Part shown: in pieces, positions 11,777 through 30,518 of the stretch
How positions within the stretch are numbered: the stretch's first letter is position 1
Layout of the letters: the number at the start of each line of letters is the position of its first letter
IMG/VR virus record: IMGVR_UViG_3300009503_000073
Strand: one strand, 5' to 3'
DNA from: a virus
DNA length: 33,164 bases
Program-made: the position numbers and the translations under genes
The notes under the pieces: model-generated
What the model saw: the letters and a program-made list of their open reading frames with translations, nothing else
Database searches by the model: none
Told to the model about the DNA's origin: nothing

Positions 11777-12201
11777 CGAAGGGTAAGCCTTGGACTGTTG
11801 AAGAGGAAAAGCAGCTGGAGCAGATGCTGCGTGAAAACAGGTCAGTTAGGGCTATTGCTAAAGCGCTTGGGAAAACTCGTGATTGCGTACGCATGAAGAT
11901 AGCGCGTCTTGGGTTAGAAGTTGTTGTTCAGGCTAAATCAGAGCGAACAACAACTACCAGTTTAAAGCTGCCGACCGAGTTGCCCAGCCTTGAAGAAGCG
12001 TTGAAAACGTTAAGTGCAGCGATGAAGGCTTTGGAGACTCCTGGTTTGGATCAGGCTGAGGTTTTGCGTTTGCGCAGCATCATTCAAGCCGTGAAAATCT
12101 ACAATGAGCTCTTTCCCAAGTATGTGGATATTCGGGGTTTTGAAGCTGAAGTTATGGAGCTGAAGAAAAAACTTGATGACGAGAGGGACAAGAAGGGCTA
12201 G
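11773..12201 (+). CDS. Probable terminase small subunit (N-terminal Myb/SANT-like HTH)
   Basis: KPWTVEEEKQLEQML...VRAIAKALGKTRDCVRMKIARLGL; directly upstream of and overlapping TerL. Confidence 0.6.
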   Translation: MTKGKPWTVEEEKQLEQMLRENRSVRAIAKALGKTRDCVRMKIARLGLEVVVQAKSERTTTTSLKLPTELPSLEEALKTLSAAMKALETPGLDQAEVLRLRSIIQAVKIYNELFPKYVDIRGFEAEVMELKKKLDDERDKKG

Positions 12202-13687
12202 AACGTGGCATAAGGCGGACTATGACCTGCAACGCCAACAGCTAAGAGAGGGTGCCAAGGTTCTGGACGAGTCTAGGAAGGCGGCTGTTGAACAGGTTAG
12301 GGGCGACACTGCTAGGTTCTTCAGAGACGTCTGCAAGCTGACGCCTTTCTGGTATCAGCTTGAGCTGGCGCAGTTGTACCGTGAGAACCAGTTTTTGGCT
12401 GTGCGTTGGCCACGTCAAACGGGTAAGAGCACGTCTATTGGGGCTTTGCTTTTGCAGGATGCCTACGAGAACCCTGACCTCTACATAGGTTTTATCGGTC
12501 CAAGCTGGCGCCAAACCAAGCTCAACATCAGGCGAGTAGCCAGCTTCTGCCGAAACCTTCCAGCTCAAGATGTTCGTGTGCAGAAGACAAGAATCAGCTT
12601 CTCCAACGGTTCAATCATCGAGGCGTTTCCGAACAATCCTGATACGGTGAGGGGAAACACGTTTCACCGTTTGTACTGGGACGAATGCGGATTCACACCC
12701 AACGATGAAGACTTGTACGATGCCATTCTTTTCACGTTGGGAACAACCAACGGCAAGCTAATTGCCAGCAGTACGCCATTTAATAGTGATTCTTTGTTTT
12801 GGAAGATGTGCAATCACCGCGATTATTCGGATTTTGCTAGGCATCACTTCACGTATGAACGGGCTTTGGCGCCTAATGGTCCCTTGAGTCCTGAGATGGT
12901 TACGCGGATTAAGCGGCAGTTTGGCGATGACCCAGCACGATGGCGACGCGAAATGGAAGCCGAATGGGCAGAAGATGAAGATGTTTGGCTGGCGCAGAGC
13001 CTCATCGTTTCTTGTGTGGGCACTGCTAAGAATTGTGGGGAAGACTTGCAAGAGTTTAATCCTGAAGCAAGTTATGAAGGCGAGTTCTTTGGCGGCTTAG
13101 ACCTTGCACAGACACGGGATTACTGTGTGTTTGCTGTGGTTGAGCGGGTTAATGATAGGCTTTTGCTTAGGCATCTGAAGGTGTTTTCGCAGCCGACTAA
13201 GTATACTCATGTGTTAGGCTACATCAAAGCCTTGCAGGACCGTTGGGGCGGGTTTGAGAAAATCCGTGTCGACTTTACACGTGAAGGTCCAAGCATCATT
13301 AGTGACATGGAGAATGCTGGCATAAACAATGCTGAAGGCGTCAACTTTAGTGTGCCCCGCAAGAGTGAGATGGCTTCGCTGTTGAAGCAGCGGATGATGG
13401 ATCAACGGTTCTTTTATCCGCTTTTGACTTGGGAGAAGCCTTACCGCGGGGACATCTGTAGTGAATTGAATGTGGAGCGTTATGAGCTGCGCAGAGACGG
13501 AGCCGTCGGTTTTAGTCATCCAAACGGCACGCATGACGACGTGTTCTGGAGTTTGGCGCTTGCATGTTATGCGACTGTGACTATGGGTCCTGAACCCTTC
13601 TTATCAGTTGTGCCAAGGATTGCTAACCGATTGAGCAAAATCAGGAAGCAGTTGGTGAGGCGCAAAATGTTGGGGGATACGCATTGA
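12173..13687 (+). CDS. terL: Terminase large subunit
   Basis: Walker A RWPRQTGKST, Walker B LYWDE, ASSTP coupling motif, RNaseH-like nuclease GGLDLA...HDDVFWSLALA. Confidence 0.95.
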   Translation: MMTRGTRRARTWHKADYDLQRQQLREGAKVLDESRKAAVEQVRGDTARFFRDVCKLTPFWYQLELAQLYRENQFLAVRWPRQTGKSTSIGALLLQDAYENPDLYIGFIGPSWRQTKLNIRRVASFCRNLPAQDVRVQKTRISFSNGSIIEAFPNNPDTVRGNTFHRLYWDECGFTPNDEDLYDAILFTLGTTNGKLIASSTPFNSDSLFWKMCNHRDYSDFARHHFTYERALAPNGPLSPEMVTRIKRQFGDDPARWRREMEAEWAEDEDVWLAQSLIVSCVGTAKNCGEDLQEFNPEASYEGEFFGGLDLAQTRDYCVFAVVERVNDRLLLRHLKVFSQPTKYTHVLGYIKALQDRWGGFEKIRVDFTREGPSIISDMENAGINNAEGVNFSVPRKSEMASLLKQRMMDQRFFYPLLTWEKPYRGDICSELNVERYELRRDGAVGFSHPNGTHDDVFWSLALACYATVTMGPEPFLSVVPRIANRLSKIRKQLVRRKMLGDTH

Positions 13688-15126
13688 GGAACAGAAACAA
13701 CTACTTTAGAGTGAGAAGGGTTTGCCGAACCTACGACCGAACGCAGGGCAAGTTCAGCTTCAACATTTCTTACGAAACCACGGTGAAGCTTACGCCACGA
13801 GCTTTGGTTGTGGCTGAAGCGTTTGGGTTAGGTGTTGACCAAGCCCAGAAATTCACCGTTCTAAACACTGAGCTGATGATTGCTCCAACCGACATCGTCT
13901 ACATCACAGGCGACAGTGGTAGCGGAAAATCTGTTTTACTGCGGGCGTTGCGCAAAGACTTGGGTGAGGAGGCTGTGGATTTATCCGAGGTTGCAATCAA
14001 TGTGGATAAGCCTCTTATCGAGACAGTTGGCAGAACAGTCGAGGAAGGCCTGGAGCTTCTGAGCAAGGTTGGCTTGAATGACGCGTTTCTTTTCCTACGT
14101 ACATACAGCCAGCTAAGTGACGGTCAGAAGTACCGTTACCGAATAGCCAAGCTCATCGAAAGCGGCAAGCAGTGGTGGCTTATGGACGAGTTCGCCGCTT
14201 GCTTGGACAGGGACACAGCTAAGATTATTGCGTTTAACCTGCAGAAAATCGCTCGGCAACAGGGCAAAGCCGTGATAGCCGCCACAACCCACAGCGACCT
14301 GCAAGAGGACTTAAAGCCCAGTGTGCTTGTGCGGAAACGGTTTGGAGAAGAAATCCAGATCAGCTATTACCCAAACGAAGCAGCGAAAGAATGCAGTCTC
14401 GTCCGAGAGATGAAGGCTGAACAAGGAACCATCAACGACTGGCGCAAGCTCAGCAACTTCCATTACCGAGGACACAAGGTTGCTGCACCCCGAAAGATAT
14501 TCCGCTTGGTAAGAGGCGAGGAGCTATGTGGTGTTATTGTTTACACGTATCCTCCCCCTAATTGTTTCGGAAGGCGAATGGTGTTGCCTCGAATGTCTAT
14601 CCGAGAAATAAACAATCAACTGAGCATCATAAACCGGGTAGTTATCCATCCAAAATACAGAACCATTGGGTTAGGCTCCATGATAATTCGGGAGACATTG
14701 CCTTTGGTGGGCACACCATACGTGGAGATGATTGCAGTTATGGCAAAGTATTCACCTTTTGCGGAGAAGGCAGGTATGCGTAAGGTTGCGGAGCAGCGAA
14801 CCGTTGAAAGTGTTTCGGCTGTTTCTGGGGTGCTTTTGGATTTAGGGTTTGACCTGCAACTCTTAGGCAGCGAACGCTATGTTACTGACAAACTTGTAAG
14901 CCTGTCCTCCTCACAACTTGAGAAATTGAAAGAAACGTTTGCTAAATGCGTGCACCCTCGATTCAAGAAGGAGTTTGAGAGTAGCAGACATCAACCTTTT
15001 GGAAAAACAGCAGATTACGTTAGAAGCGTTAAGAAATCAGATAAAGGAAAGCTGGCTAAGCTTATTAAAGTGGCTGGAATGCTCTTGCAAACAAAAGTCT
15101 ATCTAATATGGAAAGAAAAGGAATAA
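13684..15126 (+). CDS. ABC-type ATPase fused to a GNAT acetyltransferase
   Basis: Walker A GDSGSGKS, ABC signature LSDGQKYR, Walker B WLMDEF, H-loop ATTHSD; C-terminal GNAT acetyl-CoA motif RVVIHPKYRTIGLG. No TM segments. Confidence 0.85.
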   Translation: MRNRNNYFRVRRVCRTYDRTQGKFSFNISYETTVKLTPRALVVAEAFGLGVDQAQKFTVLNTELMIAPTDIVYITGDSGSGKSVLLRALRKDLGEEAVDLSEVAINVDKPLIETVGRTVEEGLELLSKVGLNDAFLFLRTYSQLSDGQKYRYRIAKLIESGKQWWLMDEFAACLDRDTAKIIAFNLQKIARQQGKAVIAATTHSDLQEDLKPSVLVRKRFGEEIQISYYPNEAAKECSLVREMKAEQGTINDWRKLSNFHYRGHKVAAPRKIFRLVRGEELCGVIVYTYPPPNCFGRRMVLPRMSIREINNQLSIINRVVIHPKYRTIGLGSMIIRETLPLVGTPYVEMIAVMAKYSPFAEKAGMRKVAEQRTVESVSAVSGVLLDLGFDLQLLGSERYVTDKLVSLSSSQLEKLKETFAKCVHPRFKKEFESSRHQPFGKTADYVRSVKKSDKGKLAKLIKVAGMLLQTKVYLIWKEKE

Positions 15127-15180
15127 TTAACAGGCTTAAGATCCATTTTACGGGAATGGTATTCAGTGGTCTTTTTGGTT

Positions 15181-16902
15181 TTACTCAATTATTTTAACTA
15201 TAACATCTGGTAATTCATCTTTAATTCTTTGGCATACCAATTGAGCGCGTGCATACAGGAAGTCCTTGTAGTCTTTTGGCTGGAATTCATTTCTGCTTAG
15301 AAATTCTTTTGGAATCAAGTGGGATTCAAGTATTTTTTCAAAGTTCTTTACGTCTTTAAACTCATTAAAGTAATCGAGTGGATTCTTGTCTCCAATTTTG
15401 ATGTTCGTTTTTGCGCGTAGATAACAGATGTTCATCAAGCTGTTTATGTCTGCTTCTTGGGGTAAATCATTAACGTTTTCTAAGAAATTCTGTGGGTAAA
15501 TGTGATGAAGATTTGGTGCTTGTGAGAGAAGTAAGTAGACATCATCCAAGACCTCGGCGTCGGGGTCTGAGAAATCAAGTGGATTCTGTTTGGCCAACAA
15601 GGCTAACACTGCTCTGCTAAGTGAACTCCTGTAGTAGTAACTTGTTTTAACGAGTTTAGATTTGGACAGCACCAATTCGGATAGGGCTGTTTTCTCTCCC
15701 TTTTCAATTTTGTCAAAATAGTTGTTACAGTAGTCATATACTTGGTCTGCACGTCGGAAATCTTCATCGCCAAAAACGGTTCTCCAAAACCATTGTTTGG
15801 CTAAGTGTTTGTTTGGGTTTGGATTTTTGTAGAAATAGTGGCATAGTGGGAAGAGTAAGTATGCGTTGGGTAGCATATTTGGACCTTGAATCTTTAAGTC
15901 TGAAAGAAATTTTATTGTCTCGAATATCGTTTTTTGACAATTATCCCAGTTTTTCTCCAGGCTATCAGTCGTCAAATTGTCCAGCGCTTTTGGGGTGATG
16001 CCGAAGGATTTTCGGTCGCCGCTTTCATCTTTTCTTAAACATATGGAAAACATTTGAATCAGAGCGTAGTCATCAATCTCTCGAAATCTATTTCCAATTG
16101 GCGATAGGGTTTTCTTGAGTGCTTCAAGATTGTCTCGTAAATAAAACATTGTTATTCCTTTCTCCCGGTTTTCGTTGCGGTAGGTTCTGGCGACTATTAT
16201 GTCAACAGGGTCGAGTCTTTTTCCTTCTTGGTTAACTCTTTCAAATATTTCTGTAACTTCGTCTACATCTACTCCTTGGATTCTTACAAAGACTAGCATG
16301 TAATCTGTGAATATTCGGTAAAGCTGTTTTATGTTGTTTTTAATTGATTCATTGATTCCAGGTTCATTGAAAATCCTTTCGTAGTAACTTAGGAAGTCAC
16401 CTTTGGTCACGTCTTTGAGCCGAAGGAGAAATGCTGGATTAACCTTGGTTTTTCGCCTTTGAAGGTCTTTTTCAAAGAAAAAATCAGCCGTTGTAGCGTC
16501 AAAGTAAACTGTGTAGTCAAAGTTTTCATTCTCTTTAACTTTGCCTTTTCCTCCCATGAGCGAGACAAGCAATGAAGTAGCCCTTTGCTGGCCGTCTAGA
16601 ATGTACTCCCATTCCTTAAATTGTCTTAAAGTTTCTTCATCATGAGGAAATTTAAAACCGCCAATTTTTCGGTGAGTATGCAGATAAGTGTCTGTTACCC
16701 AGTACAGCATGCTCCCCACTGGATAGAATTTGTAAATGCTATCCCACAGTTTTAGTATATTTTCAGGTTCCCAAACAAAGTCTCTTTGAAAAGTCGGAAT
16801 GAGTATCTTGTCTTTGGTTAATTTTTCTTCAACGAACACATTAATCCTCATGGTCTCTGATTTAATCTCACGCTGTAAGTTCGTCATTTGGTTGCTTTCC
16901 AC
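15181..16902 (-). CDS. GmrSD-like protein (DUF262 plus C-terminal HNH-like DUF1524 domain), putative Type IV restriction endonuclease
   Basis: IPTFQRDFVW and ILDGQQRATSL DUF262 motifs, IFERVNQEG; C-terminal NLHHIYPQN...NSLMNICYL...N..I.DKNP. Confidence 0.88.
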   Translation of the reverse strand: MESNQMTNLQREIKSETMRINVFVEEKLTKDKILIPTFQRDFVWEPENILKLWDSIYKFYPVGSMLYWVTDTYLHTHRKIGGFKFPHDEETLRQFKEWEYILDGQQRATSLLVSLMGGKGKVKENENFDYTVYFDATTADFFFEKDLQRRKTKVNPAFLLRLKDVTKGDFLSYYERIFNEPGINESIKNNIKQLYRIFTDYMLVFVRIQGVDVDEVTEIFERVNQEGKRLDPVDIIVARTYRNENREKGITMFYLRDNLEALKKTLSPIGNRFREIDDYALIQMFSICLRKDESGDRKSFGITPKALDNLTTDSLEKNWDNCQKTIFETIKFLSDLKIQGPNMLPNAYLLFPLCHYFYKNPNPNKHLAKQWFWRTVFGDEDFRRADQVYDYCNNYFDKIEKGEKTALSELVLSKSKLVKTSYYYRSSLSRAVLALLAKQNPLDFSDPDAEVLDDVYLLLSQAPNLHHIYPQNFLENVNDLPQEADINSLMNICYLRAKTNIKIGDKNPLDYFNEFKDVKNFEKILESHLIPKEFLSRNEFQPKDYKDFLYARAQLVCQRIKDELPDVIVKIIE

Positions 16903-17040
16903 ACCCTTTATAATGTACCTGTAGCGTTCTTAAAAACTTTGCAGGCTTACTGCACATTCTTTCGTTTACTGTTATCTTGCCTTTATAGGGCAAGTCATAT
17001 TAGCAATTTAGTATAGAAATTGGAGGAAGATTGATGTAAT

Positions 17041-17478
17041 ATGAATGAAGTTGCAGGTGTCATCTTTCCGGTGCCCAAACACTTGGTTGATAGGTTGCTG
17101 ACGGAAAAAAGGAATGTGTTTGTCAAATATGTTGGCAAAACTGGCCTTCTAAAAAGGTTATTAGTTAAACATCGGGTCTTGTTTTATGTTTCTGGTTCAT
17201 CTAAAGAGATCGTGGGCGAGGGTACGATTGATGAAATTAGTTTTCTTACACCTATCGAAGCTTTGCAGAGGTATGGCAGAAAGTTGTTTCTTGATGAAGG
17301 TGAATTGGAAGCGTATATTCGCTTACAGCCAAATAGGGATTCTTCTAAGAAGATGCTTGTCTTGGTGCTTTCCAAAATTAAAAAATACGCGAAGCCTAAG
17401 GTTTTTGGAAAACCTATTAGTATGTCTGGCCTTTACTTGTCTAAAGAGGACTATAGGTTGCTGCTTGCTCAGCAATAA
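17041..17478 (+). CDS. DUF365-family PUA/ASCH-like protein
   Basis: GVIFPVPKHLVDRLL...VFVKY...VLFYVS...IVGEGTI...YGRKLFLDEGELEAY...GLYL matches the archaeal DUF365 pattern as recalled. Confidence 0.7.
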   Translation: MNEVAGVIFPVPKHLVDRLLTEKRNVFVKYVGKTGLLKRLLVKHRVLFYVSGSSKEIVGEGTIDEISFLTPIEALQRYGRKLFLDEGELEAYIRLQPNRDSSKKMLVLVLSKIKKYAKPKVFGKPISMSGLYLSKEDYRLLLAQQ

Positions 17479-20400
17479 TTAGTAATGACCTAACTCCAAG
17501 AATCGCGAACATTCTTTCTATGCATGACTTGTTGGGGATGCCTGCGTCTGTGGATTGGAAGAGGACGTGTTTTTCCGTTTCAAAATAGTCCATTGTCAGG
17601 TGCGGTCCATGTAGCCTTGATAGGTCTCGGAAGGGCGTTACTGAAACTACGAATGCGTCGAGTTTTATGTTTGGGTTGCCGATTTCTTTCTCTATCTGCT
17701 CGTGCAGGTATTCGTGGAGTTTTAGTTTGGGGTCGTCTAAGCCCATGTGAGTTAAGCCTTTAGGGTCAATGAATACTATGGTTTGTTTTTGTTCTTTCTT
17801 TATCCACATGATGAAGTCTGGGTAGAATGAGTGGGCTTCGTAGAAACCGACGCCTTTGCTTCTTGTTAGGTTTCTTAGTAGGTAGATTTCGGCGTCTGTT
17901 TGGTGTGTGCTGAGGTAGTTTTTGAGGTCTTCAACAAAGGTTGATTCGCCTACGTTTAGTCCCGTTGGAATGGTGACTATGCTTGAATTGTCTTGTTTTA
18001 CGAGGAGCGGTTGGTATAGGTGTCCTTTGAATGGGGCAAGTTTTAGGGTTGCGGGGGTTTGGTCTATGTAGGTTCTGAGTCCGTCGGTGAGTTTTTGTTC
18101 GGTTATTAGGTTGTAGATTTTGCCGGTTTGGATTAGGTTTTCGAGGTTACTGATTAGCATTTGGTCTTCTTCGTTTAGTTGGATGCGGTACATGGTTAGG
18201 ATGTTGTCGTCTTCTTGTTTGAGTGGTTTGAGTTCTATGTGTGTTTTTTCGGCGGCGTTTCTTTTCTTTTGGTAGTAGAGGTTTAGGTATTTTTGGAGTA
18301 TGAGGATGACTATGTCGGTGGTTTGTTCTATGGCTTGGAAGGTTTTGGGTTCTATGAGTTCGGGGTCGCAGAGTAGTGTGTATTTTTGGTTGTAGATGAT
18401 TTGTTTGAGGGCTTCTTTGGTGATGGCTATGTTGAAGAGTTCGCGTTCGTTTTTGTATTCTAGGATTTTGTAGTAGATGTCGTTCCAGTCGAGGATGTCG
18501 AGGATTTCTTTTCTGATTGTTCGTGGTGTTTGAGTGGTTGTTGTTGATGTTAGGGTTTGGTCGCCTCTGCCGTCTATTACGAGTGCTCTGGGGATGAGGT
18601 CGAGTTTTACTTGTAGCTCGTCTGTTGGTTCGAGTTTGAAGAGTTCTTGTTCGAAGGACCAGCCTTGTTTTAAGCCTATGATTTGGAGGTCTGTGGGGAA
18701 GGGTTCTATTTTTTTGGTTGGCAAGGGGATTTCGTATATGGGGAGGTCTTCTTTTTCGATTATTTCTTTGAAGGTTTCCATGTAGTTTGCTTGTATGCCG
18801 TAGATGTGGAGTGTTTCAAGAATTTCTATGAATTGTGGGTGAGGAGGAGGCACGTATCGGCTTCTTTTGAGTCCGAGGTTTTTGCCTTTTAGTCTGACGC
18901 CTCTGCCGAATAGTTGTATGATTTGTGGTCCTGCGCCTTTTCCGATGTAGAGTAGGCTCATGGTGGATACGCGCCATGAGTTCCAGCCTTCTACGAATTT
19001 CTTTGAGCCTATGAGTAGGTTGATGGGTGAGTTTGGTTCGTTTATGTCTTCGAAGAGGGATTTGCTTATGGCTGCTTTTTGTATGGTTATGTCTTGGGCT
19101 GTTGTTTCGACTAGTTTGAGGAATTCGCGTTTGTCGCCTATGTTTATGACGGCGAAGTATTTTTCTGCTGTTCCGGCTTTTAGGCCGATTTCGCCTTCGG
19201 CTTCTTTTAGGTCGATTAGGTGGAGTTTGCAGCTTGTGTTTTCGGGTGAGATGTAGAATATGTCGTTGAAGATGCCGTTGTAGATTTCTTGGGCGGATGT
19301 TTTCTTTTCTCTGAAGTAGGCGAAGTTTCTTTCTGGGTGTCTTGGTGCGAATACGTCTTTGTTGTTTGCTATGATGCCTGATTGGCCTGTTAGGATGTTT
19401 TGGATTAGTTGTGTGATTTCTGTTTTGTTTGTGTTTAGGAGCCAGTTTAGGAATTGGACGACTTTGAAGACGTCGGAGGCTTCTTTTTGGACTTTGCTTC
19501 CGACGAATATCCAGAGGGGTTTTTCAATGTTGTATTCTTTTAGGCTTTGGCCTGCTTCGCGGTATTGGATGAGTTGCTCGTAGAATGCCATGGCGTTGGC
19601 TAGGAGTAGCGTTTTGGTTTGTTTGTCGTTGAATTCTTTTTTTCCGAGGTTTAGGATGCGGAAGTCTTTGCCGTAGCCGTCGCCGTAGAAGTACTTGTAT
19701 GAGTAGTCGAAGAGTATGGCTTTTGAGTATTCGCGGAAGGATTCTTCTTTGCTGCTGTCGATGGCTTGCCCAAAGGTGGCGCTGTATTCGAAGGTGAAGC
19801 CATCTTTTGCCAGTCTTTCTCGGGTTCTCTTCCATTTCATGTCCTCAGATTTTTGTCCTTTGTGCCCTTCATCTACAAAGACGAGGTTTTTTGTGCCGAG
19901 GGTTGAGATGTCGATGGTGACGCCTTCGCCTTTTTTGTCTTCGGGCAGTTTAAGTTTGTGTATGCTTATGACTTTGACGGTGTTTTTGTCGGCTTCGAAG
20001 TAGCCGCCGTTTTCACCTTGGAAGAGAGTTGCGGGGATTCCGCTTGCTTTGAGTTCATCTAGGTGTTGTTTGGACATGTCGTCTCCGGTTGTGATTAGGA
20101 TTATGTTGTCGTAGTCTATTTTGTACGGTCCTTTGTTGTAGGCTAAGAATTGCCAGTAGTTTGCATGCATGATGAGGGTTTTTCCGCTTCCCGTTGCCAT
20201 CCAGTAAGCGATTTTTTGTAGGTCTGGGCGCCGTGAGAAGTAGTTGTCTGATTTTGCTTGTTCCACCCACTGGTTTAACTCGTTTAGGAAACGGACGGGG
20301 TTTTGAAAGTAGCTGTCCAAGTATATTTCTGCAAACAGCAGAGCAAGGTATTGGTAGTATTTGAACGAGATTTTCTCCTCTCTGTTCTTTTTTAGCTTTT

Positions 20401-20656
20401 GAAAGTATTTTCTAATGTTGTCGTCATATTGCCTCAGCTTGCCCTCTGGGACGGTGTTGCCTTTCTTTGAGATTAAGCTGTAGTACATGTAGCTTTTGCC
20501 GTCTTCCCCAAAGCCCTCGTTGACATCGCTGAACTGTTTAATGTCTGAAACTTTGTGTAGACCGAGTTTGTTGGCTATGAACTGGGCAAGCAACAAATGG
20601 TTTTCTAAACTGAATCGAGTCTTCAGCTGAGCAGATGCTTGGCTTACCTTGGGCAT
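17441..20656 (-). CDS. res: Type III restriction endonuclease/helicase (Res)
   Basis: SF2 motifs WMATGSGKT, VFVDEGH, EYSATF, EGWN, QLFGRGVRL; C-terminal nuclease FYPDFIMW...IVFIDPKG. Confidence 0.9.
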   Translation of the reverse strand: MPKVSQASAQLKTRFSLENHLLLAQFIANKLGLHKVSDIKQFSDVNEGFGEDGKSYMYYSLISKKGNTVPEGKLRQYDDNIRKYFQKLKKNREEKISFKYYQYLALLFAEIYLDSYFQNPVRFLNELNQWVEQAKSDNYFSRRPDLQKIAYWMATGSGKTLIMHANYWQFLAYNKGPYKIDYDNIILITTGDDMSKQHLDELKASGIPATLFQGENGGYFEADKNTVKVISIHKLKLPEDKKGEGVTIDISTLGTKNLVFVDEGHKGQKSEDMKWKRTRERLAKDGFTFEYSATFGQAIDSSKEESFREYSKAILFDYSYKYFYGDGYGKDFRILNLGKKEFNDKQTKTLLLANAMAFYEQLIQYREAGQSLKEYNIEKPLWIFVGSKVQKEASDVFKVVQFLNWLLNTNKTEITQLIQNILTGQSGIIANNKDVFAPRHPERNFAYFREKKTSAQEIYNGIFNDIFYISPENTSCKLHLIDLKEAEGEIGLKAGTAEKYFAVINIGDKREFLKLVETTAQDITIQKAAISKSLFEDINEPNSPINLLIGSKKFVEGWNSWRVSTMSLLYIGKGAGPQIIQLFGRGVRLKGKNLGLKRSRYVPPPHPQFIEILETLHIYGIQANYMETFKEIIEKEDLPIYEIPLPTKKIEPFPTDLQIIGLKQGWSFEQELFKLEPTDELQVKLDLIPRALVIDGRGDQTLTSTTTTQTPRTIRKEILDILDWNDIYYKILEYKNERELFNIAITKEALKQIIYNQKYTLLCDPELIEPKTFQAIEQTTDIVILILQKYLNLYYQKKRNAAEKTHIELKPLKQEDDNILTMYRIQLNEEDQMLISNLENLIQTGKIYNLITEQKLTDGLRTYIDQTPATLKLAPFKGHLYQPLLVKQDNSSIVTIPTGLNVGESTFVEDLKNYLSTHQTDAEIYLLRNLTRSKGVGFYEAHSFYPDFIMWIKKEQKQTIVFIDPKGLTHMGLDDPKLKLHEYLHEQIEKEIGNPNIKLDAFVVSVTPFRDLSRLHGPHLTMDYFETEKHVLFQSTDAGIPNKSCIERMFAILGVRSLLIIAEQAATYSPL

Positions 20657-20661
20657 GACGG

Positions 20662-23600
20662 TTATGCTCCCATTAACCGCTTAAACTCAGGCTCTATAGG
20701 ACGTGCATTCTCAACGTAGCTGTCACCGTTGACGAAAATGAGGTCAAAGTTTTTGCCTGCAAGAATCTTACTTTCAATGAACGCTTTGTCTTTTTCAAGG
20801 TCAATTTCATCTAGGTTTCTCCAGATAACACATACACTCTGGTTTTCCACCTTGCCAAACACTGCCCTGTAAACCCGTTCCTCATCACTGAACCGCTGCA
20901 ACTTCTCAACAGTTAAGCCAAGAAGATAATTAAAGGTCTCAACGAGGTCAACAACTACCGTTTTCTCCCCATCGGCGTTTACTGTTTTGATTTTATAATC
21001 AAAAGGCCTCACAAGCTTGTCTACCATCAGCCTTGTTGGGCTTTCCCTTGTCTCATAATCAAGCATGTAATGCAAAAAGTAGTCTCCAAAGCGGTCAAGG
21101 GTTTCTTGAGCCGTTTTATCAGGTTCCTTAATTATTATGTTGTTTAGGGTGTCCTCGTAGTTTTCGATGTACTGGTATTTGAAGCAATGGCTTTTTCCAT
21201 TAGTAGACTGTGGCTTGCCATCTTTCCAGTCGCTTGAAAACATGGCTTTTTGAATGCGCTTTTTCATTGTTGACTCAAAGTAGTCGCCAATTTCGATCAG
21301 TATGTATTTCCTTTTTCCAGAGTCCTCAGAATTCAAATCAATTGTTGCTTCTGCTGTCGTTCCTGACCCAGCAAAGAAATCCAAAATTATCGAATCGTTG
21401 TTAGTGCCTATTGTAATTATTCGCTTAAGAAGACGCTTAACCTTAGGTGTGCTAAATATTTCTCCCTCAAAAATCATTGATTTAAGTTCTTGTTTACCTT
21501 CTTGATTGTGACCGACTTCCTCATAGGTCCAGATTGTCAATGGAGTAATTCCTTCTTTGACCTCGCTAAGGAATCTCTTGATTCGAGGAACATTATTTCC
21601 ATCTTCACCAAACCAGATTCTGTTATCTTTTACCATTTGCTGAAATCTCTCAGGAGATACTCGCCAACAGTATCCCGCTGGAGGATTGACAATTCTTCCC
21701 GAAGGCGTGGTAATCGGGTAATCATAAGAAGCAGAATACGTCTTAACATCAAGTCCACCTGACATCCAGGGACCGCGAGGGTCGTTATCGGGATTTTTAT
21801 ATCGTTCATTGTGCCCTTCAGTTCGCGGTAAGAGATTCGGGCGCCAGATCTCTTTGTTTTTGGCATAGCATATTATGAAATCATGATTATCGGAAAACCA
21901 TTTTGCATCATTCTGAGGAGAAAATTTCTTCTGCCAGATTATGTTTGAAACGAAATTATGTTGTCCAAAAACTGAATCTTCAAGCGCCTTAAGCCGGGCT
22001 TGTTCTGTGTCGTCTATGCTGATAAAAACTGATCCTTCTGAATTTAGTAATGGAACAGACTGCTCAAGACATGACTTCATCATTGTTAACCAGCTTGAAT
22101 GCTGGTAATTGTCTTTATAGATGAAGTCGTCTCCGCCTATGTTGTAAGGTGGATCTATGTAGACGCACTTTATTTTTTCGCCAAATTTAGTCTCCAATAA
22201 TCGCAATGCTTGGTAGTTGTCGCCTTTAATCATCAATCCATCGGTGAATTCATCTATATTGTCGATTTTTTGCAGTAGCCTTTCTTTGAAATCCTGTGGA
22301 AAATTTTTGGTGTCTAAAGTAAGATACTTGTATTGTTTGAGGAATTCAACAGGCAACGTTTTCTTATTAGCGGTACTGTAAAATGACCCTTTTGTTATTT
22401 CATCCAATTGGTAAAGTTGCTTCCATTCTAAAACTTGTTTTTCATTTCGTCCAATTTCCTCATAAAACTCGACAGGTACACGGTCTAATGTCATGCAGTA
22501 GTCGGTTCGCAAAACAAGTTTCTTTTTCTCGTAGAGCTTCTTCTGGAAGTCTTCTATCTGATTGAGGAACTCTATTATTTTGGCTGCTATGTTGTGGATT
22601 GCTTTTGCTTTGGCTGCAAGAATTTTAGCACCGTTCCCATCGGCTGCTTCAAGGTCACTTAGGCTCCACATTTCATTTTTGAGGTAGAAGTCAAGTTCAC
22701 TCTCAAGAAAGCCTTTTAGGTTTTTGTGGATGAAGAAGTCCCGTGTGTTACGTTCCACATAGCTATTCAAGTGCTTTTCTAGTAAGGGTTTTTCTCCTTC
22801 ACCCCGAGATTTGAGGATTCCCGCAACAGGGCTGTTCTCCAACAAGGGAGTTATCTTTTCTATGGCATCCTTGACCAGAGCCGCTTGGACGTCCGACTTA
22901 CCAAACTTGGAAGTTTCCTCGTCTGTAAGCCCACGATAATTAAACCGAATCTCAACAGAACCGGCAGCATCATCTATGGTAACGGACTCATCTGGGGAAA
23001 GCAAGAAGTACTTCTTTTCACCCTTAACATTTCCTACTTCAACCTTTGCTTCGGCAAGAACAAAAGTTACCAGATACCGTCCAGTTCTAAAACTGTATTT
23101 TTTGAAGAACTCTCCAGTCTTAACATAGTACATGTCTTTAGTTGCCCAGTAGAGCGCTACTTCTTCGCCGTTGTAGGGAATGTAGTACTTGTTTTTGCCA
23201 CCGTACCGCCGTTTGGGAATAAAATCACCTTTATCGTAGTAACGGGAGAAGAACTCGTAGATGTGGTTGAAGACGTCACTTACTTGAGATTGAGTTAACT
23301 TTGCTTCTTCGAGCTGCTTCTTTTTGCCAAGGTACAGTTTAACCTTTGGCGCATCCTCGTTTCTCTTTACGTTGCCCTCGATGTCCAAGGTGCCCTCGCC
23401 AAAATCGCGAACAATCTCATTCTTAAGCTTCTCAACCTCGCTTTTCAGCTCCTCTTGCCCAACTTGGCTGTACGCTTGGAACTGTTTTTCAGCCTCAGCA
23501 ATCAAATCTTGCTCTATGAACTTCTCAATCTCTTTTCGCTTAAAATTCATGATTCGGTAAATGCCAAAATCAAGGTCCTGATTATCAAACTGGAAAAGCT

Positions 23601-23667
23601 CTCGCAATAAGCTCTTGACTTTTTCTCGTACATCCTCTTCAATCTGAACCACAACTATTTCCTCCAA
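20662..23667 (-). CDS. mod: Type III DNA adenine methyltransferase (Mod), long form
   Basis: Catalytic YIDPPY precedes SAM-binding LDFFAGSGTT (beta-class order); N-terminal DLDFGIYRIMN extension. The true start may be GTG 23652 (SD GGAGG). Confidence 0.92.
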   Translation of the reverse strand: MEEIVVVQIEEDVREKVKSLLRELFQFDNQDLDFGIYRIMNFKRKEIEKFIEQDLIAEAEKQFQAYSQVGQEELKSEVEKLKNEIVRDFGEGTLDIEGNVKRNEDAPKVKLYLGKKKQLEEAKLTQSQVSDVFNHIYEFFSRYYDKGDFIPKRRYGGKNKYYIPYNGEEVALYWATKDMYYVKTGEFFKKYSFRTGRYLVTFVLAEAKVEVGNVKGEKKYFLLSPDESVTIDDAAGSVEIRFNYRGLTDEETSKFGKSDVQAALVKDAIEKITPLLENSPVAGILKSRGEGEKPLLEKHLNSYVERNTRDFFIHKNLKGFLESELDFYLKNEMWSLSDLEAADGNGAKILAAKAKAIHNIAAKIIEFLNQIEDFQKKLYEKKKLVLRTDYCMTLDRVPVEFYEEIGRNEKQVLEWKQLYQLDEITKGSFYSTANKKTLPVEFLKQYKYLTLDTKNFPQDFKERLLQKIDNIDEFTDGLMIKGDNYQALRLLETKFGEKIKCVYIDPPYNIGGDDFIYKDNYQHSSWLTMMKSCLEQSVPLLNSEGSVFISIDDTEQARLKALEDSVFGQHNFVSNIIWQKKFSPQNDAKWFSDNHDFIICYAKNKEIWRPNLLPRTEGHNERYKNPDNDPRGPWMSGGLDVKTYSASYDYPITTPSGRIVNPPAGYCWRVSPERFQQMVKDNRIWFGEDGNNVPRIKRFLSEVKEGITPLTIWTYEEVGHNQEGKQELKSMIFEGEIFSTPKVKRLLKRIITIGTNNDSIILDFFAGSGTTAEATIDLNSEDSGKRKYILIEIGDYFESTMKKRIQKAMFSSDWKDGKPQSTNGKSHCFKYQYIENYEDTLNNIIIKEPDKTAQETLDRFGDYFLHYMLDYETRESPTRLMVDKLVRPFDYKIKTVNADGEKTVVVDLVETFNYLLGLTVEKLQRFSDEERVYRAVFGKVENQSVCVIWRNLDEIDLEKDKAFIESKILAGKNFDLIFVNGDSYVENARPIEPEFKRLMGA

Positions 23668-26405
23668 CGGCAGATTTGAGTATGGTCACACCGTTTACAG
23701 TTTTCACCCGGATTGGGCTTAAACTTGCGTTTAGTTATTTGCTCTACAACCTTTTGTGCATTTTGCTTCGCCTCAGCTAAGCGCTGCTCCGAGACGTCAA
23801 CAGGTTTTACGTCGGCATCATCAAGATACGCCACGGAACCACTGGAAACTGGCCTGCCCATAGTTTTCAAGCCTGCAGTGTAAAGCCGAATTTGAGTAGA
23901 AACCTCTTCCAGAGTCCGTGCTTCCTCTGAACTCTTATAATCCCTAACTTCCAACTCCCCACCGCTTCGCAGGATAACATCAACTTTACCCATTATAGTT
24001 GCGCTCGTAACACCTTCATCATGAATCGGAAACTCCAATCGGTACTCAACTTCTTCTATGCGCTTCAAGTCATCACCATACTTCTGGGTAAAAGCCACCA
24101 ACCGCTTCTTTGCACTATTCTTAAAGTTGTCAAGCACAACACCGCCAACAAACGGCATATGAAAATCCGCATCAACACTCGAAGCCACCGCACTAACCGG
24201 GCTATAACCTTCTTTAACAAGCTCACCAGCCCGCTTGAGACAATAATGCATACCATTACCATAACCGATAGCAGGATTAAGCTGCGGCTGATAACCCCAA
24301 AGCTCCCTCAACAAATACATATGCGGACAAATATCAAAAGTCACAATTTCGCCCGCAGAATAGGTCTGAATCTCATCCGACATCACGCCCGGACTAACAA
24401 CAATGGGCGGAATAGCCGCACCACCGCTAAGCGGCACAGCATTACGCAAATCCATATCATCAATAAACTGGCTCCTAGAAACACTCCGAGTTAACCTCTC
24501 AAAATGACTAACCACCAAAGCATCCCGCGCCCTAGTAATGGCAACATAAAACAGCCGCCGCTCATCCTCTTCACTGCCCTCATACCGGGCAACATCAAAC
24601 ATATCCCTAGGCACACCACACCAATTCTGCTCCCGCCCAACCATACAGGAAGGAAAACGCCTCGTCACAGTAGCGAACAGAAAAACAATAGGCCACTCCA
24701 ACCCCTTAGCTTGATGAACCGTCATAACCTGAACAGCATCAACTCCGCGAATATCATCCGAAGGCTGCTCCTCATAAGCAGCAATCGCATAGGTATTCAT
24801 AAACCAGCACAAACTCTTCAAATCCCGCTCCCAATCAGGACGGCGCCCACCAAAACGGTTAGCAGACTCAAAATCGGTAAGAAGATTATTAAACCTGCCC
24901 AAGTTAGCCATGACCGCCGCATCATTCCCGTTTTTGTAATCCAAATTGCGGTAACCCAAAGCCGTCAAAACATCATAGTAAATCTTGGTGAAATTGTCGT
25001 AAGAAGGCTTCACAGAATTCAGATCATCCTTAATCGCCCGAAGCTTTTTCTCCGCATCCCTCGGGTGACCATGAGTGTGCGCAGCATCCCAACAAGCTAA
25101 AGCCGCAGTCAACAAGTCATCGCCTTCAATTTTCTCACTCCAGTTATGTGCATCGGGAGTCCAAAAGCCTTCATTCCAGAACCAAGAAAATATCATACCA
25201 ACAGCTTGAGCTTCATCTCTCTTGAAAAGACCAACCTTCCCACCCACGATATATGGAATATGCCTTTCCTTCAACTCATCAATAAGAGGACCTGCGGAAG
25301 TGCTAACACTTCTCGTTAAAACTCCAAAATCCGAAAACTTCAACCCATCATTAGCCGTCATAAGTGCCTCAATTTGATTAACAATCCATATTGCCTCATT
25401 CTCGGGGCTCTCGTTGCTGGCAACAGCAACAAACCCTTCTTCAGACCTAGTGGGATCCATGGCATCATAATGCGCTCTGGTAAAGGTGCCTGCAAATTTG
25501 TTGGCGTTCCAAACAATGCGCTTCCCGCTTCTCCGATTCTCATTAATACTGACCAACTTTGCATCAGGAAATTTCTTGGAAAAATCAGAAAAGAACCGCT
25601 CATCCGAACCACGCCACTGATAAATGCTCTGCCGAGGATCACCAACAACAAACACGCTTCCGTTCTTACCTATGTACTCAATCAATTCAGCCTGCGCTCG
25701 ATTAATATCCTGATACTCATCAACAAGAAGATGCTTAACACCACTAAGCTTATCCGGAGCCTCTCTAAGCTTCAAAACTGCCTCATAAATAATCCTGCCA
25801 AAAGTCAACAACCTGTGCTCCCGCAAAAGCTCCTCATACCATTTCAATTTCCCAAAAAATTCAGGCGCCCGCTTCTCAAGCGCTTTCTCATCCAACATCT
25901 CATCCCAAGCCATGTTAACCGTCCGCAAAAAAGTCCGACAACATTCAGCATAAGAACCTCCCAACTTATGGATGCCCTTGTTCCAGCCGTGCCGCATCAG
26001 AAAAGCAATCTCTTGATTATCATCTAAGACATCATAATTGCCAAACCTAAAGTGATCTTCCAAAACTCTCTTGGCATAAGCATGAATAGTTCCAACGTAC
26101 ATCTCACCCAGATTAGCGGTCGCCGCCTCCCCGCAAATCTCACCAACACGCTGATAAACACGGCTTTTCATACTCTGAGCAGCCTTCTCAGTAAACGTGA
26201 AAGCCACAATCTCAGAAGGCTTCACACCCTCAACCGCAAGCAAATAAACAATCCGCCTAGTTAACGTCTCAGTCTTTCCAGCACCAGCCCCTGCAATAAC
26301 CCGATTATACCGAGACTTCGACAAAACCGCCTCTTCTTGGTCCTTCGACAAACGACTCGGTGTACTCAAAATCTTTTCAATCAAAGCAGACTCAACTGTA
26401 GCCAA
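23655..26405 (-). CDS. UvrD/PcrA-like SF1 helicase fused to a C-terminal PD-(D/E)XK nuclease with probable 4-Cys Fe-S cluster
   Basis: AGAGAGKT, LVDEYQD, VGDPRQSIYQWRG, NRRSG, TVHQAKGLEW, RRLFYVAITRA; nuclease GKVDV...VRDYKS; Cys in CPH and CKRCDHTQIC. Confidence 0.92.
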   Translation of the reverse strand: MATVESALIEKILSTPSRLSKDQEEAVLSKSRYNRVIAGAGAGKTETLTRRIVYLLAVEGVKPSEIVAFTFTEKAAQSMKSRVYQRVGEICGEAATANLGEMYVGTIHAYAKRVLEDHFRFGNYDVLDDNQEIAFLMRHGWNKGIHKLGGSYAECCRTFLRTVNMAWDEMLDEKALEKRAPEFFGKLKWYEELLREHRLLTFGRIIYEAVLKLREAPDKLSGVKHLLVDEYQDINRAQAELIEYIGKNGSVFVVGDPRQSIYQWRGSDERFFSDFSKKFPDAKLVSINENRRSGKRIVWNANKFAGTFTRAHYDAMDPTRSEEGFVAVASNESPENEAIWIVNQIEALMTANDGLKFSDFGVLTRSVSTSAGPLIDELKERHIPYIVGGKVGLFKRDEAQAVGMIFSWFWNEGFWTPDAHNWSEKIEGDDLLTAALACWDAAHTHGHPRDAEKKLRAIKDDLNSVKPSYDNFTKIYYDVLTALGYRNLDYKNGNDAAVMANLGRFNNLLTDFESANRFGGRRPDWERDLKSLCWFMNTYAIAAYEEQPSDDIRGVDAVQVMTVHQAKGLEWPIVFLFATVTRRFPSCMVGREQNWCGVPRDMFDVARYEGSEEDERRLFYVAITRARDALVVSHFERLTRSVSRSQFIDDMDLRNAVPLSGGAAIPPIVVSPGVMSDEIQTYSAGEIVTFDICPHMYLLRELWGYQPQLNPAIGYGNGMHYCLKRAGELVKEGYSPVSAVASSVDADFHMPFVGGVVLDNFKNSAKKRLVAFTQKYGDDLKRIEEVEYRLEFPIHDEGVTSATIMGKVDVILRSGGELEVRDYKSSEEARTLEEVSTQIRLYTAGLKTMGRPVSSGSVAYLDDADVKPVDVSEQRLAEAKQNAQKVVEQITKRKFKPNPGENCKRCDHTQICRWRK

Positions 26406-26548
26406 TTCAAATTAACCCCAGACTTGCATTAGCCTGATACCACAAATAGTCCCTCACAGATAATATGATTTACGCATTCCAACTCAACAACACGCAACCG
26501 ATGCATCATCGAAAATCTTAAACCACACATCCACCAAACAAAGCAAAC

Positions 26549-26699
26549 ATGAGTTCAACGAAGAAAAAAGCGCTTCTGCGAAGTCTGCGGCAAAGAAATA
26601 TCCCAGCAAGAGTACGAAGATTATGACGGGATGTGTTGGGAATGCTGGGACAACCAGCTAACCGAGGAATCCGACGCCATGTTCGGAGACCTAATTTAG
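26549..26699 (+). pseudogene. Zn-finger microprotein interrupted by one extra A in an A-run
   Basis: The frame with KRFCEVCGKEISQQEYEDYDGMCWECWDNQLTEESDAMFGDLI has no start. ATG 26549 joins it if the A6 run at 26564-26569 were A5. Confidence 0.55.
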
Positions 26700-26705
26700 A
26701 CTTTC

Positions 26706-26852
26706 CTAAACTTTTCCTGCCCGTGAAATCAAGTCTTCGATGACATCATTGAAGGTCTGGGCTTTTCCCGTTTTAACCATCCGCTCGCCCAGCAATCGCG
26801 TAAGCTTGCAGTAGACAGAAATTAGAATACTACAGAAAAATAGCAAGCCCAT
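26706..26852 (-). CDS. Possible small antitoxin/RHH-like protein, perhaps degenerate
   Basis: Read manually, 48 aa: ...KLTRLLGERMVKTGKAQTFNDVIEDLISRA resembles archaeal small DNA-binding/antitoxin proteins; the N-terminus is atypical. Confidence 0.35.
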   Translation of the reverse strand: MGLLFFCSILISVYCKLTRLLGERMVKTGKAQTFNDVIEDLISRAGKV

Positions 26853-26945
26853 CTCAGACTAGCTTCAGGATTGACAGGAACCCATATGAAATAGTTAAAC
26901 CTGAAAAGTTTCTCTATATCGGGTTCCCAGACGATATGTCGGAGA

Positions 26946-27194
26946 GTGAGGAAGATGGTTAGGTTCCAAAAACGTTGGACAAGTAGACGTTATAAGGGTA
27001 ACAATCGCCGCTACCCAATCTACTCCGTAAACTTCCCAGCAAAACTAAACGAAAACGTCGAAACTAAACGGAAAAAGGACTACGACCTGAAATGGTTAGA
27101 GCAGGAAACGGATGAAGAAGAGATAATTACTGTAACCTTCACAAGAAAGAAAACCAAAAGTCCCGCTCAAACTGTCAGTCCGCACAAATCGTAA
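26946..27194 (+). CDS. Small basic hypothetical protein (possibly AbrB-like)
   Basis: 82 aa, basic N-terminus, YSVNFPAKL beta-strand pattern; SD-like GGAG/GAGG upstream. Confidence 0.55.
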   Translation: MRKMVRFQKRWTSRRYKGNNRRYPIYSVNFPAKLNENVETKRKKDYDLKWLEQETDEEEIITVTFTRKKTKSPAQTVSPHKS

Positions 27195-27279
27195 TTTCTT
27201 AGAAACTGCTACCCCCCGCACAAAGAATTCTGGCAGCCGTTTGCCCTTTGTCTCAGCTAGAAATGTTATGGGAAAAACG

Positions 27280-27437
27280 TTGCTAGCACTAGAAAAACTC
27301 GAAAAAGACCTCGATAAAACTCGAGAAAAAGACGACTATAAACCACGCTTGCAACTAAATTTTTACATGAACCTGTCAATTTTGGCAACATAGCGGCTTT
27401 AACCGAATTTTGCCCAAGGGATTTCTAGCGCTAGCAA
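27280..27437. repeat. 16-bp inverted repeat enclosing CTCGA/A-tract repeats
   Basis: TTGCTAGCACTAGAAA (27280-27295) versus TTTCTAGCGCTAGCAA (27422-27437): 15/16 reverse-complementary. Confidence 0.7.
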
Positions 27438-27541
27438 AAATTTTCTCAAGACAAAGTAGCGAAAAAAACTAACACTAACGTGATAAGCTGGTTTCAGCGC
27501 CTAATTTTCTACCTTCAACCTCCTTAGCGGAGCTGACAAAT

Positions 27542-27949
27542 ATGGCGCAAACAAACAGAAAGGGCATACCGCTTCAACCATTCATCGGCAGAGGAGCCGC
27601 CCTAAACCGCGCCATAATCAGCACCCTGGAAGACAAGCAGCCTCAGACGACACGTCAAATAGGAAAGAACGTAACCAGCACAAGAAAGTTTAAAGGCACA
27701 AGCCTTTCCACCGTAAACAAAAGAGTAAGAAACCTTGAAGAACAGGGCTACCTCAGCAAAATCCAAGTTAAAGAAAGAATCGGCGGACCAACAAATTACT
27801 ACCAGCTGACACCCAAAGCGTACCTTGCCCGATTCATAGACAGCAACAGCATCGAAGACCTATTTGAAAAAATAAGCGGCGAAACTGCCCTAATACTTCT
27901 CGCAGACCTGGCGAACACCAAACTGGACAAGGAAACACAAAAACAGTGA
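27542..27949 (+). CDS. Winged-helix DNA-binding protein
   Basis: QTTRQIGKNV...SLSTVNKRVRNLEEQGYL...YYQLTPKA. Confidence 0.8.
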   Translation: MAQTNRKGIPLQPFIGRGAALNRAIISTLEDKQPQTTRQIGKNVTSTRKFKGTSLSTVNKRVRNLEEQGYLSKIQVKERIGGPTNYYQLTPKAYLARFIDSNSIEDLFEKISGETALILLADLANTKLDKETQKQ

Positions 27950-27985
27950 CTCCCACTCCATCAACTACCTTGTCTTCTGAAAAGT

Positions 27986-28348
27986 TCATCGTTCAACAAT
28001 ATGGTCGGTAAGACCATTTAAAATGCCAACGTAAACAGGCACGTATTTTCTAACGACAGGTTCAATCTGTTGAAGAACCACAAAAATCAGAGCCCTAAAC
28101 TTCACATCCTGCACGGACGCTTCCGGATAATTCTTTCGCATTCGACGCATGGCCTCAATTATGAAGCACTCAGCCTTCTCCGTAATATCGTACGTACCCA
28201 CGTCTGAGCCATCTTTCACCAAGCCATGCACCTTTAGCTCCCTGATGCACTCTTCAACTATCTTTTTAGTTACTTTCGCATGCATCTTCACTCTACCCTT
28301 CCTTCTGACAATCGACAGGATCAGAATCACTCGCTGGTCGGCTTGCAC
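27986..28348 (-). CDS. Hypothetical protein with a wHTH-like wing motif
   Basis: IRELKVHGLVKDGSDVGTYDITEKA; the real start may be the internal MHAK. Confidence 0.55.
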   Translation of the reverse strand: MQADQRVILILSIVRRKGRVKMHAKVTKKIVEECIRELKVHGLVKDGSDVGTYDITEKAECFIIEAMRRMRKNYPEASVQDVKFRALIFVVLQQIEPVVRKYVPVYVGILNGLTDHIVER

Positions 28349-28745: not shown

Positions 28746-28752
28746 ACCTTCT

Positions 28753-28875: not shown

Positions 28876-28890
28876 GTTAACCATCTATCT

Positions 28891-29321: not shown

Positions 29322-29332
29322 TAGTTACACCT

Positions 29333-30465: not shown

Positions 30466-30518
30466 GCTGCCAGAATTCCTTTATTTTCCTGCCACGACAC
30501 AGTTTTAGGTGATATGAA

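Follow-up and report, generated by a model that had tools for sequence, protein, structure and literature searches.

When a virus carries several genes for marking, recognising and cutting DNA side by side, do these genes work together as one system, or were they gathered independently at a site that receives such cargo? The question is raised by positions 13684-26405 of the IMG/VR virus record IMGVR_UViG_3300009503_000073, a stretch of 33,164 nucleotides (nt) that we call the window and whose coordinates are used below; L and G numbers label the loci and genomes of relatives compared with it. Six genes follow each other in this block, encoding an ABC-ATPase fused to a GNAT-like domain (ABC-GNAT), a GmrSD-family nuclease, a small DUF365 protein, the restriction (Res) and modification (Mod) proteins of a Type III restriction-modification (R-M) system, and a UvrD-Cas4 helicase-nuclease. 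The first-pass annotation had read them as a single machinery by which the virus marks its own genome and cuts DNA that is modified otherwise, and had named independent acquisitions at a hotspot as the alternative. All six genes proved to be intact open reading frames (ORFs) with the positions and identities proposed there, and it is the alternative that the evidence favours. We consider it likely that the block is part of the cargo region of a temperate Bathyarchaeia virus of approximately 39 kb, lying between the genes for the terminase small subunit (TerS), the terminase large subunit (TerL) and ABC-GNAT on one side and the early/integration region on the other, and that two or more defence modules entered it independently; lysogenic conversion or superinfection exclusion is the best reading of their role.

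A first line of evidence comes from the gene that opens the block. ABC-GNAT (13684..15126, + strand) encodes a soluble, COG2401-like protein and is the last conserved gene before the variable cargo, directly behind TerL (12173..13687, + strand; Pfam Terminase_6N 1.3e-12, PHROG terL 8e-36), which forms the conserved left flank of the cargo slot. Its ATPase part is clear from the sequence (Pfam ABC_tran 3.6e-09; PHROG "ABC transporter" families at 5e-34 and 7.5e-19; Walker A GDSGSGKS, signature LSDGQ and Walker B WWLMDEF), and a fold search with the whole model returned only ABC ATPases. A GNAT part is weakly suggested by a PHROG acetyltransferase match (0.005), by a C-terminal profile that matches N-acetyltransferases of the PDB (best E=0.003), by a GNAT-like motif (HPKYRTIGLG) and by the name that JGI gives to relatives, "ABC-type ATPase with predicted acetyltransferase domain". 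Among viral contigs of IMG/VR we recovered 54 relatives at 50-78% identity, approximately 46 of which have a detectable TerL directly upstream, and none of the five island genes was found in the available flanks of these 54. The gene also lies downstream of TerL in proviruses L143 and L197-L200, with unrelated cargo in the latter, and more than 120 ABC-GNAT protein clusters were found at 74-81% identity. Judging from these neighbourhoods, ABC-GNAT is a core late gene tied to the terminase and stands outside the defence cargo, to which the first-pass annotation had assigned it. It is also more conserved than the terminase, being ~55-78% identical even where TerL is only 28-34% identical to that of the window. 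In 20 of the 54 IMG/VR contigs the sequence stops 3-100 nt past the ABC-GNAT stop codon, so that the cargo is not visible there; the likely reason is that provirus trimming stopped with the last virus-like gene, or that assembly broke off in the variable cargo. Phage ABC-ATPase+GNAT fusions are predicted to acylate a DNA base (Iyer et al., cited in PMC7824862). If ABC-GNAT does acylate DNA, the entire virus group would share this property irrespective of its cargo.

What follows ABC-GNAT differs between relatives. The metagenome-assembled genome (MAG) GCA_026014735.1 carries two related proviruses that fill the same slot differently, one (L143/L194, on contig 1) with the Type III genes, UvrD-Cas4 and DUF365, the second (L200, on contig 2) with the Type I genes HsdR/S/M. 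The slot of L198 holds a Schlafen/AlbA protein (SLFN_AlbA_2), an SMC-like ATPase, a DEAD helicase and DndB, that of the decayed element L197 holds DndB, and in L199 host genes come after ABC-GNAT. L055 has two unknown genes and a PemK toxin, then Res, Mod and UvrD-Cas4 at 90, 85 and 94% identity to those of the window. Among 45 downstream ORFs of the IMG/VR relatives we found a viperin-like radical SAM protein, DpnII with a D12 methylase, Mrr_N, a C5 methylase and HATPase_c_3, as well as two integrases and some host-like genes. The radical SAM/SPASM protein of L001 (11646-13730, + strand; 695 amino acids, aa) lies right after ABC-GNAT and matches PADLOC viperin models (pVip 1.5e-25); its 340-aa N-terminal part is without a family match. 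L201 encodes a 727-aa Piwi-domain protein (a prokaryotic Argonaute, pAgo; 3250-5433, − strand) and two unknown ORFs between ABC-GNAT and Res, a position that is taken in the window by GmrSD and DUF365. Defence hotspots of temperate phages are known from P2/P4 in E. coli. With its conserved flank and a variable cargo that includes several defence genes, the slot after TerL-ABC-GNAT is, from these comparisons, a prophage defence hotspot as well. Tailed proviruses of Bathyarchaeia with pPIWI and DISARM parts have been reported (PMC11705971).

The placement of the block within a temperate virus is seen in a related provirus that lies inside a 1.14-Mb contig of the same Bathyarchaeota MAG GCA_026014735.1 (G006; loci L143/L194). 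Read in the direction of the window, its order is g30768, g31650, further genes, the major capsid protein (MCP), g888, the tail genes, TerS, TerL, ABC-GNAT, DUF365, Res, Mod and UvrD-Cas4, then three small or unknown genes, a GmrSD-like gene, further genes, a homolog of the window ORF 30519-30758 and a 476-aa tyrosine integrase. From this gene order we conclude that the window is a circularly permuted version of the ~39-kb genome of a temperate virus, in which the island follows the late operon and precedes the early/integration region with the integrase. Identity to the window is 79% for UvrD-Cas4, 78% for Mod, 77% for Res, 72-77% for DUF365 and 78% for ABC-GNAT, and 69% for TerL, 63% for MCP, 74% for g31650 and 67% for g30768.

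Within the cargo, the largest unit is formed by three genes on the − strand. The first (23655..26405; gene-caller start 26384) encodes a UvrD-like superfamily 1 (SF1) helicase joined to a Cas4-like PD-(D/E)XK nuclease (Pfam UvrD-helicase 3e-50, UvrD_C 3e-36, PDDEXK_1 6e-22, Cas_Cas4 2e-08), whose cysteines C693, C903, C906 and C912 are invariant across 12 homologs. The second (20662..23667) encodes a Type III Mod of the long form (~996-1001 aa; PADLOC MTase_III 5.9e-162; Pfam N6_N4_Mtase 1e-37 at residues 499-801), a beta-class N6/N4 methylase in which YIDPPYN stands ahead of DFFAGSGTT. The third (17441..20656) encodes a Type III Res, also of a long form with 1071 aa (PADLOC REase_III 2.9e-153; Pfam ResIII 7e-10), with the superfamily 2 (SF2) ATPase motifs MATGSGKT and VDEGH and, identified by eye, a C-terminal nuclease motif YPDF...FIDPKG (PD...DxK). 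The UvrD-Cas4 and Mod ORFs overlap by 13 nt (a 3-nt gap by the gene calls), mod lies upstream of res, and the gap between these two is 5 nt. The same three genes are found in the same order and on the same strand in L055, in L056/L057 (a provirus with an integrase, an archaeo-eukaryotic primase (AEP) and a g30768 homolog), in L067, in G006, in the viral contig L202 and in the Leptospiraceae locus L101. A Mod-like methylase comes directly after UvrD-Cas4 in ~24 of 80 genome loci sampled, and the third gene there usually encodes a protein of 1050-1100 aa with weak similarity to Type III Res (REase_III). Homologs of the helicase-nuclease at 57-94% identity are common in chromosomes of Bathyarchaeia, Methanomethylicia and Asgard archaea, and other close homologs (46-84% identity) occur without adjoining Mod or Res (L058-L060, L063-L066, L070). 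On gene order and profile matches, UvrD-Cas4, Mod and Res thus form a conserved three-gene operon in archaea and bacteria.

This arrangement is already known, since Hudaiberdiev et al. (2017) described Type III Mod/Res as "the most common genomic neighborhood" of the UvrD-Cas4 fusion, the same neighbourhood as here; they found the fusion in bacteria and mesophilic archaea and predicted it to be a defence accessory (PMC5704561). Three side observations concern the operon genes themselves. Residues 1-470 of Mod form an N-terminal extension without a Pfam match, and long forms of both Mod and Res accompany UvrD-Cas4. Within res, between positions 18000 and 20000, the + strand has a GC skew of +0.28 to +0.42 and an AT skew of -0.45, so that the coding strand is unusually A- and C-rich. 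In L057 (11206-14392) Res is split into ORFs of 145 aa and ~900 aa, while in the matching L056 it is intact with 1061 aa; a frameshift in this variant or faulty assembly could account for the split.

Convergent with res, and overlapping its 3' end by 38 nt, lies the gene for a small ASCH/PUA-like beta-barrel protein of the DUF365 family (17041..17478, + strand; Pfam DUF365 2.1e-13). The label "PUA-like" of the first-pass annotation is borne out by this profile, by a match to PDB entry 2KKU (AF2351) at 2.9e-32, and by an AlphaFold2 model (pLDDT 91.6) that aligns with template-modelling (TM) scores of 0.75-0.79 to AF2351 and to Zymomonas ZmASCH (5GUQ); weaker fold matches are N-terminal domains of McrB, EVE, YTH and the N4-acetylcytidine (ac4C) amidohydrolase YqfB. 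The neighbourhoods of the gene point away from GmrSD. Relatives of DUF365 were located at 48 metagenome loci, and of the 25 large neighbouring ORFs that were scanned there, 17 encode an Eco57I/MmeI-type methylase (Type IIG/IIL or PglX-like), four match ResIII, and one each is BrxL, an N6_N4 methylase and an SMC ATPase. By tblastn, no relative of the window GmrSD was found beside these DUF365 relatives, except in the copies of the same virus (L139-L142). The DUF365 gene of G006 comes directly after ABC-GNAT and is convergent with res, with no GmrSD gene in between, and on a 2.0-Mb contig (L144) a 60% identical DUF365 faces another Type III pair, a short one (727-aa Res and 541-aa Mod), in convergent orientation. 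A search for DUF365 in four archaeal genomes gave no match and is uninformative. Others have noted stand-alone ASCH proteins near R-M systems and N6-adenine methylases, with binding of modified bases as the suggested role (Iyer et al. 2016, PMC4738411; Bell et al. 2020, PMC7641849). These associations suggest that DUF365 pairs with methylase-bearing R-M enzymes rather than with GmrSD, and the most economical reading is that it is an accessory of such an enzyme, either a putative reader of the N6-methyladenine (m6A) mark or a regulator.

The remaining cargo gene of the block is divergent from DUF365, from which it is separated by 138 nt (16903..17040, by ORF coordinates; presumably the promoter region). 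It encodes a GmrSD-family protein (a ParB-like DUF262 domain and a putative DUF1524 His-Me finger nuclease domain; 15181..16902, − strand; gene-caller start 16887), a predicted Type IV modification-dependent nuclease. The N-terminal domain is well matched (GmrSD_N 1.5e-30), GmrSD_C reaches E=1.9e-4 with 21.7 bits, just below the Pfam cut-off of 23 bits, and the protein matches the PADLOC models PDC-M55C (8e-47) and HEC-05 (6e-39); the motifs LDGQQR and HHIYPQ lie in its N- and C-terminal parts, respectively. In L143, L055 and L201, the closest three relatives in which the Type III operon is retained, the slot has no GmrSD gene, and tblastn detected no relatives of the gene in viral contigs. 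G006 does carry a GmrSD-family gene with both domains, which sits at the opposite side of the operon and is only 22-24% identical to that of the window. This low identity and different position make it most likely that the two viruses gained their Type IV enzymes independently, and two gains would fit selection for both kinds of restriction, not a fixed multi-gene system. The GmrSD gene therefore seems, as far as its distribution tells, to be an independent one-gene module.

We thus read the block as two modules that may act side by side in a lysogen or in the course of an infection. Mod would methylate adenines on one strand of an asymmetric site, on the virus DNA and, in a lysogen, on that of the host, and Res, with its ATP-driven SF2 motor and PD-(D/E)XK nuclease, would cut incoming DNA that is without the mark. 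UvrD-Cas4 would most likely load on the ends made by Res, unwinding and degrading the DNA as a built-in "shredder" of RecBCD/AddAB-like function. Post-restriction degradation in bacteria is the task of the cellular RecBCD/AddAB enzymes, which to our knowledge are generally absent from archaea. DUF365 might modulate the system either via the methyl mark or via the expression of res, with which it shares the 38-nt overlap. Independently, GmrSD would cut DNA with modified cytosines that escapes the Type III enzyme. The net effect would be that lysogen and virus exclude competing viruses and plasmids. The idea that the two restriction types complement each other, one directed at unmodified and the other at modified DNA, had already been put forward for this locus and is reasonable for a virus that carries both.

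Several points weigh against reading the block as independently acquired modules. The region from 15.1 to 30.5 kb has a lower G+C content (0.38-0.46 per gene) than the virus core (0.49), and the value changes from module to module (GmrSD 0.381, DUF365 0.39, Mod 0.41, Res 0.44, UvrD-Cas4 0.46); this counts in favour of separate modules but does not date the acquisitions. Cargo and core have diverged alike between the window and G006, which indicates that the Type III block has long been carried, more as a fixture of this sub-lineage than as a passing insertion. The presence of both a Type III operon and a GmrSD-family gene in each of two related viruses may have been selected for, which would amount to a weak functional linkage. 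In the 20 IMG/VR contigs that end within 100 nt after ABC-GNAT, the cargo that would speak for or against variability lies out of view. DUF365 is not found beside the operon in L055, L056 and L201 and is therefore not obligatory for it. Finally, all biochemical activities, the order in which they act and the part played by DUF365 are inferred.

A possible, if doubtful, extension of our reading would make the Type III part a four-component machine, in which DUF365 reads or gates the m6A mark, recognition and cutting fall to Mod and Res, and UvrD-Cas4 shreds the products and possibly feeds them into CRISPR adaptation, with GmrSD kept by selection because it closes the escape route of hypermodified competitors. 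If this were true, archaea, being without RecBCD, would gain a step of post-restriction degradation.

It is unlikely, in our view, that the R-M operon is in the first place a selfish addiction or stabilisation cassette that kills cells which lose the provirus, with defence as a by-product. R-M systems do behave like toxin-antitoxin modules (PMC7641849). The three-gene operon moves among chromosomes, proviruses and viral contigs of distant taxa, and toxin genes (PemK, PIN) adjoin it in L055. Yet Type III enzymes require a pair of unmethylated sites in inverse orientation and are generally considered poorer addiction modules than those of Type II, and the same slot in relatives holds defence genes that are not addictive, such as the pAgo, the viperin-like and the Type IV genes. 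Stabilisation is moreover compatible with a defence role, and the two explanations are non-exclusive.

The single integrated system of the first-pass annotation, worked out here such that ABC-GNAT would mark the virus DNA by acylation, the ASCH protein would read marks on behalf of GmrSD, and both restriction types, III and IV, would jointly tell self from differently modified invaders, now appears very unlikely. It draws on the conservation of the six adjacent genes as a block in at least eight contigs of this virus, on the acylation of a DNA base that has been predicted for ABC-ATPase+GNAT proteins (PMC7824862), on the modified-base readers among ASCH/PUA-like folds (McrB-N, EVE and YTH being among the fold matches), and on the second provirus, G006, that also combines both restriction types. 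However, the six genes are together only in near-identical copies of one virus (L139-L142), and in relatives the components are not inherited jointly: ABC-GNAT, the core gene after TerL, is followed by unrelated or no cargo in dozens of them, L143 has no GmrSD gene between ABC-GNAT and DUF365, the GmrSD-family gene of G006 is distant in sequence and position, and relatives of DUF365 adjoin Type IIG, Type III and BREX genes, where tblastn found no relative of the window GmrSD. Against its own proposal, that annotation had set the prospect that relatives would carry ABC-GNAT with unrelated cargo and that the families would never co-occur elsewhere. The former is what we see; the latter does not hold, since UvrD-Cas4, Mod and Res recur together, as do DUF365 and Res.

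Nor do the data favour the view that UvrD-Cas4 serves replication or recombination of the virus and stands beside the R-M genes incidentally, which we regard as highly improbable. Cas4-family nucleases are common in archaeal viruses (PMC5704561), and the many close homologs without adjoining Mod or Res would agree with such a role, but the tight same-strand junction with mod, the recurrence of the same order from Bathyarchaeia to Leptospiraceae, and the location of the gene in the low-G+C cargo, outside the replication module of the window (30.7-33.1 kb), all speak for membership in the operon. Least credible by far is an origin of the island from host chromosome or from a chimeric assembly joined to a virus fragment, for which the sharp drop in G+C at 15.1 kb, the chromosomal location of close homologs of island genes in Bathyarchaeia and other archaea, and the many IMG/VR relatives that end right after ABC-GNAT could be cited, and against which stand the virus genes on both flanks of the island in the window, the place of the G006 island between late operon and integrase, and the contigs of 36-39 kb that share the arrangement, together with independent contigs across its junctions.

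Our preferred reading, a defence cargo slot in a temperate virus, also accords with the wider context of the window. Identical proteins occur on contigs of 35.9, 37.6 and 39.0 kb, and contigs from two other studies span the ABC-GNAT/GmrSD and GmrSD/DUF365/Res junctions with 0-5 mismatches. The contigs of four DNA sequencing runs are fragmentary on the window and none of them joins across GmrSD; the parts that they leave uncovered are not evidence. One contig of a sediment run (X5) tracks the window to position 15115, which is 11 nt short of the ABC-GNAT stop, and is unlike it from there on; it may come from a co-occurring relative with other cargo, a weak hint from one contig. The closest genome record, G001, is a fragment of 12.6 kb with ABC-GNAT at its end.

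The first 15 kb of the window contain the virion genes, namely a capsid protein fragment, tail completion and tail proteins, a tape-measure protein and TerL, with a small helix-turn-helix (HTH) protein in the position of the terminase small subunit. On the other side of the island, the rest of the low-G+C variable/early region (26406..30500) forms the right flank of the slot, with small ORFs, a winged-helix regulator (27542-27949) and, from the first reading, a possible integrase remnant and attachment (att) site; a homolog of g26946, 66-67% identical, adjoins the operon in L055. No homolog of the intact 476-aa integrase of G006 is detectable in the window at E<=1e-3, which agrees with the integrase remnant that had been proposed at 29700-30600. 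Scans for tRNA genes in the window, L195 and L196 found none, and no terminal or long direct repeats were found in the window. The nearest relatives of the window genes are from Bathyarchaeia and other Thermoproteota, and our best reading is a temperate, siphovirus-like tailed virus with a host among the Bathyarchaeia.

Bathyarchaeia are abundant, uncultured archaea of sediments, and a large group of their viruses carries this hotspot. The slot after TerL-ABC-GNAT could be mined for new archaeal defence genes, as the hotspots of bacterial phages were. UvrD-Cas4 and ASCH are two putative accessories that recur beside restriction systems. No new principle is involved: Type III R-M with UvrD-Cas4, GmrSD, R-M-linked ASCH proteins, defence cargo on archaeal tailed proviruses (PMC11705971) and the idea of a hotspot are all known already. 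What is added is the definition of this hotspot, a wider set of partners for DUF365 and the occurrence of this cargo set on a Bathyarchaeia virus; as far as we found, the literature holds no description of a virus with Type III, UvrD-Cas4, ASCH and GmrSD together.

Compared with known systems, each component has a recognisable counterpart. ABC-GNAT shares with the COG2401-type phage ABC-ATPase+GNAT proteins (PMC7824862) a soluble ABC ATPase, a GNAT-like domain and its coding by a virus; its membership in this class is by domain layout, and the gene is here linked to the terminase, not to the island. GmrSD has the apparent two-domain layout, the DGQQR motif and the histidine-containing C-terminal motif of the Type IV enzymes GmrSD, Eco94GmrSD and BrxU, from which it differs as a distant archaeal/viral member whose C-terminal domain stays just below the Pfam cut-off. 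DUF365 resembles the stand-alone ASCH proteins (PMC4738411, PMC7641849; 2KKU, 5GUQ) in being a small single-domain barrel that is encoded, chiefly in archaea, next to restriction enzymes with a methylase. In the literature such proteins are described for the most part from Type I R-M and GNAT-EVE operons (PMC4738411, PMC7641849), whereas the neighbours of the DUF365 family here are Type IIG/IIL-like (Eco57I/MmeI) and Type III enzymes as well as BREX genes; the ribonuclease activity on single-stranded RNA reported for ZmASCH (5GUQ) is a feature of that protein.

The Type III genes recall EcoP15I and EcoP1I in having mod upstream of res, a beta-class DPPY Mod, and a Res with an SF2 ATPase and a C-terminal PD-(D/E)XK domain, but both proteins are much longer here (Mod ~1000 aa, with its N-terminal region of 470 aa, and Res 1071 aa), and a third gene, for a helicase-nuclease, belongs to the operon. 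With the described UvrD-Cas4 neighbourhoods (PMC5704561) they share the SF1 UvrD helicase with a C-terminal Cas4-like PD-(D/E)XK domain and four cysteines, and Mod then Res beside it; in our case the set lies on a tailed archaeal virus and provirus, with a convergent DUF365/ASCH gene. As a whole, the region resembles the defence hotspots of phages and archaeal proviruses (P2/P4; PMC11705971) in its conserved core flanks and interchangeable defence cargo, and differs in that the slot is set by the end of the late operon, TerL-ABC-GNAT, in one large group of Bathyarchaeia viruses.

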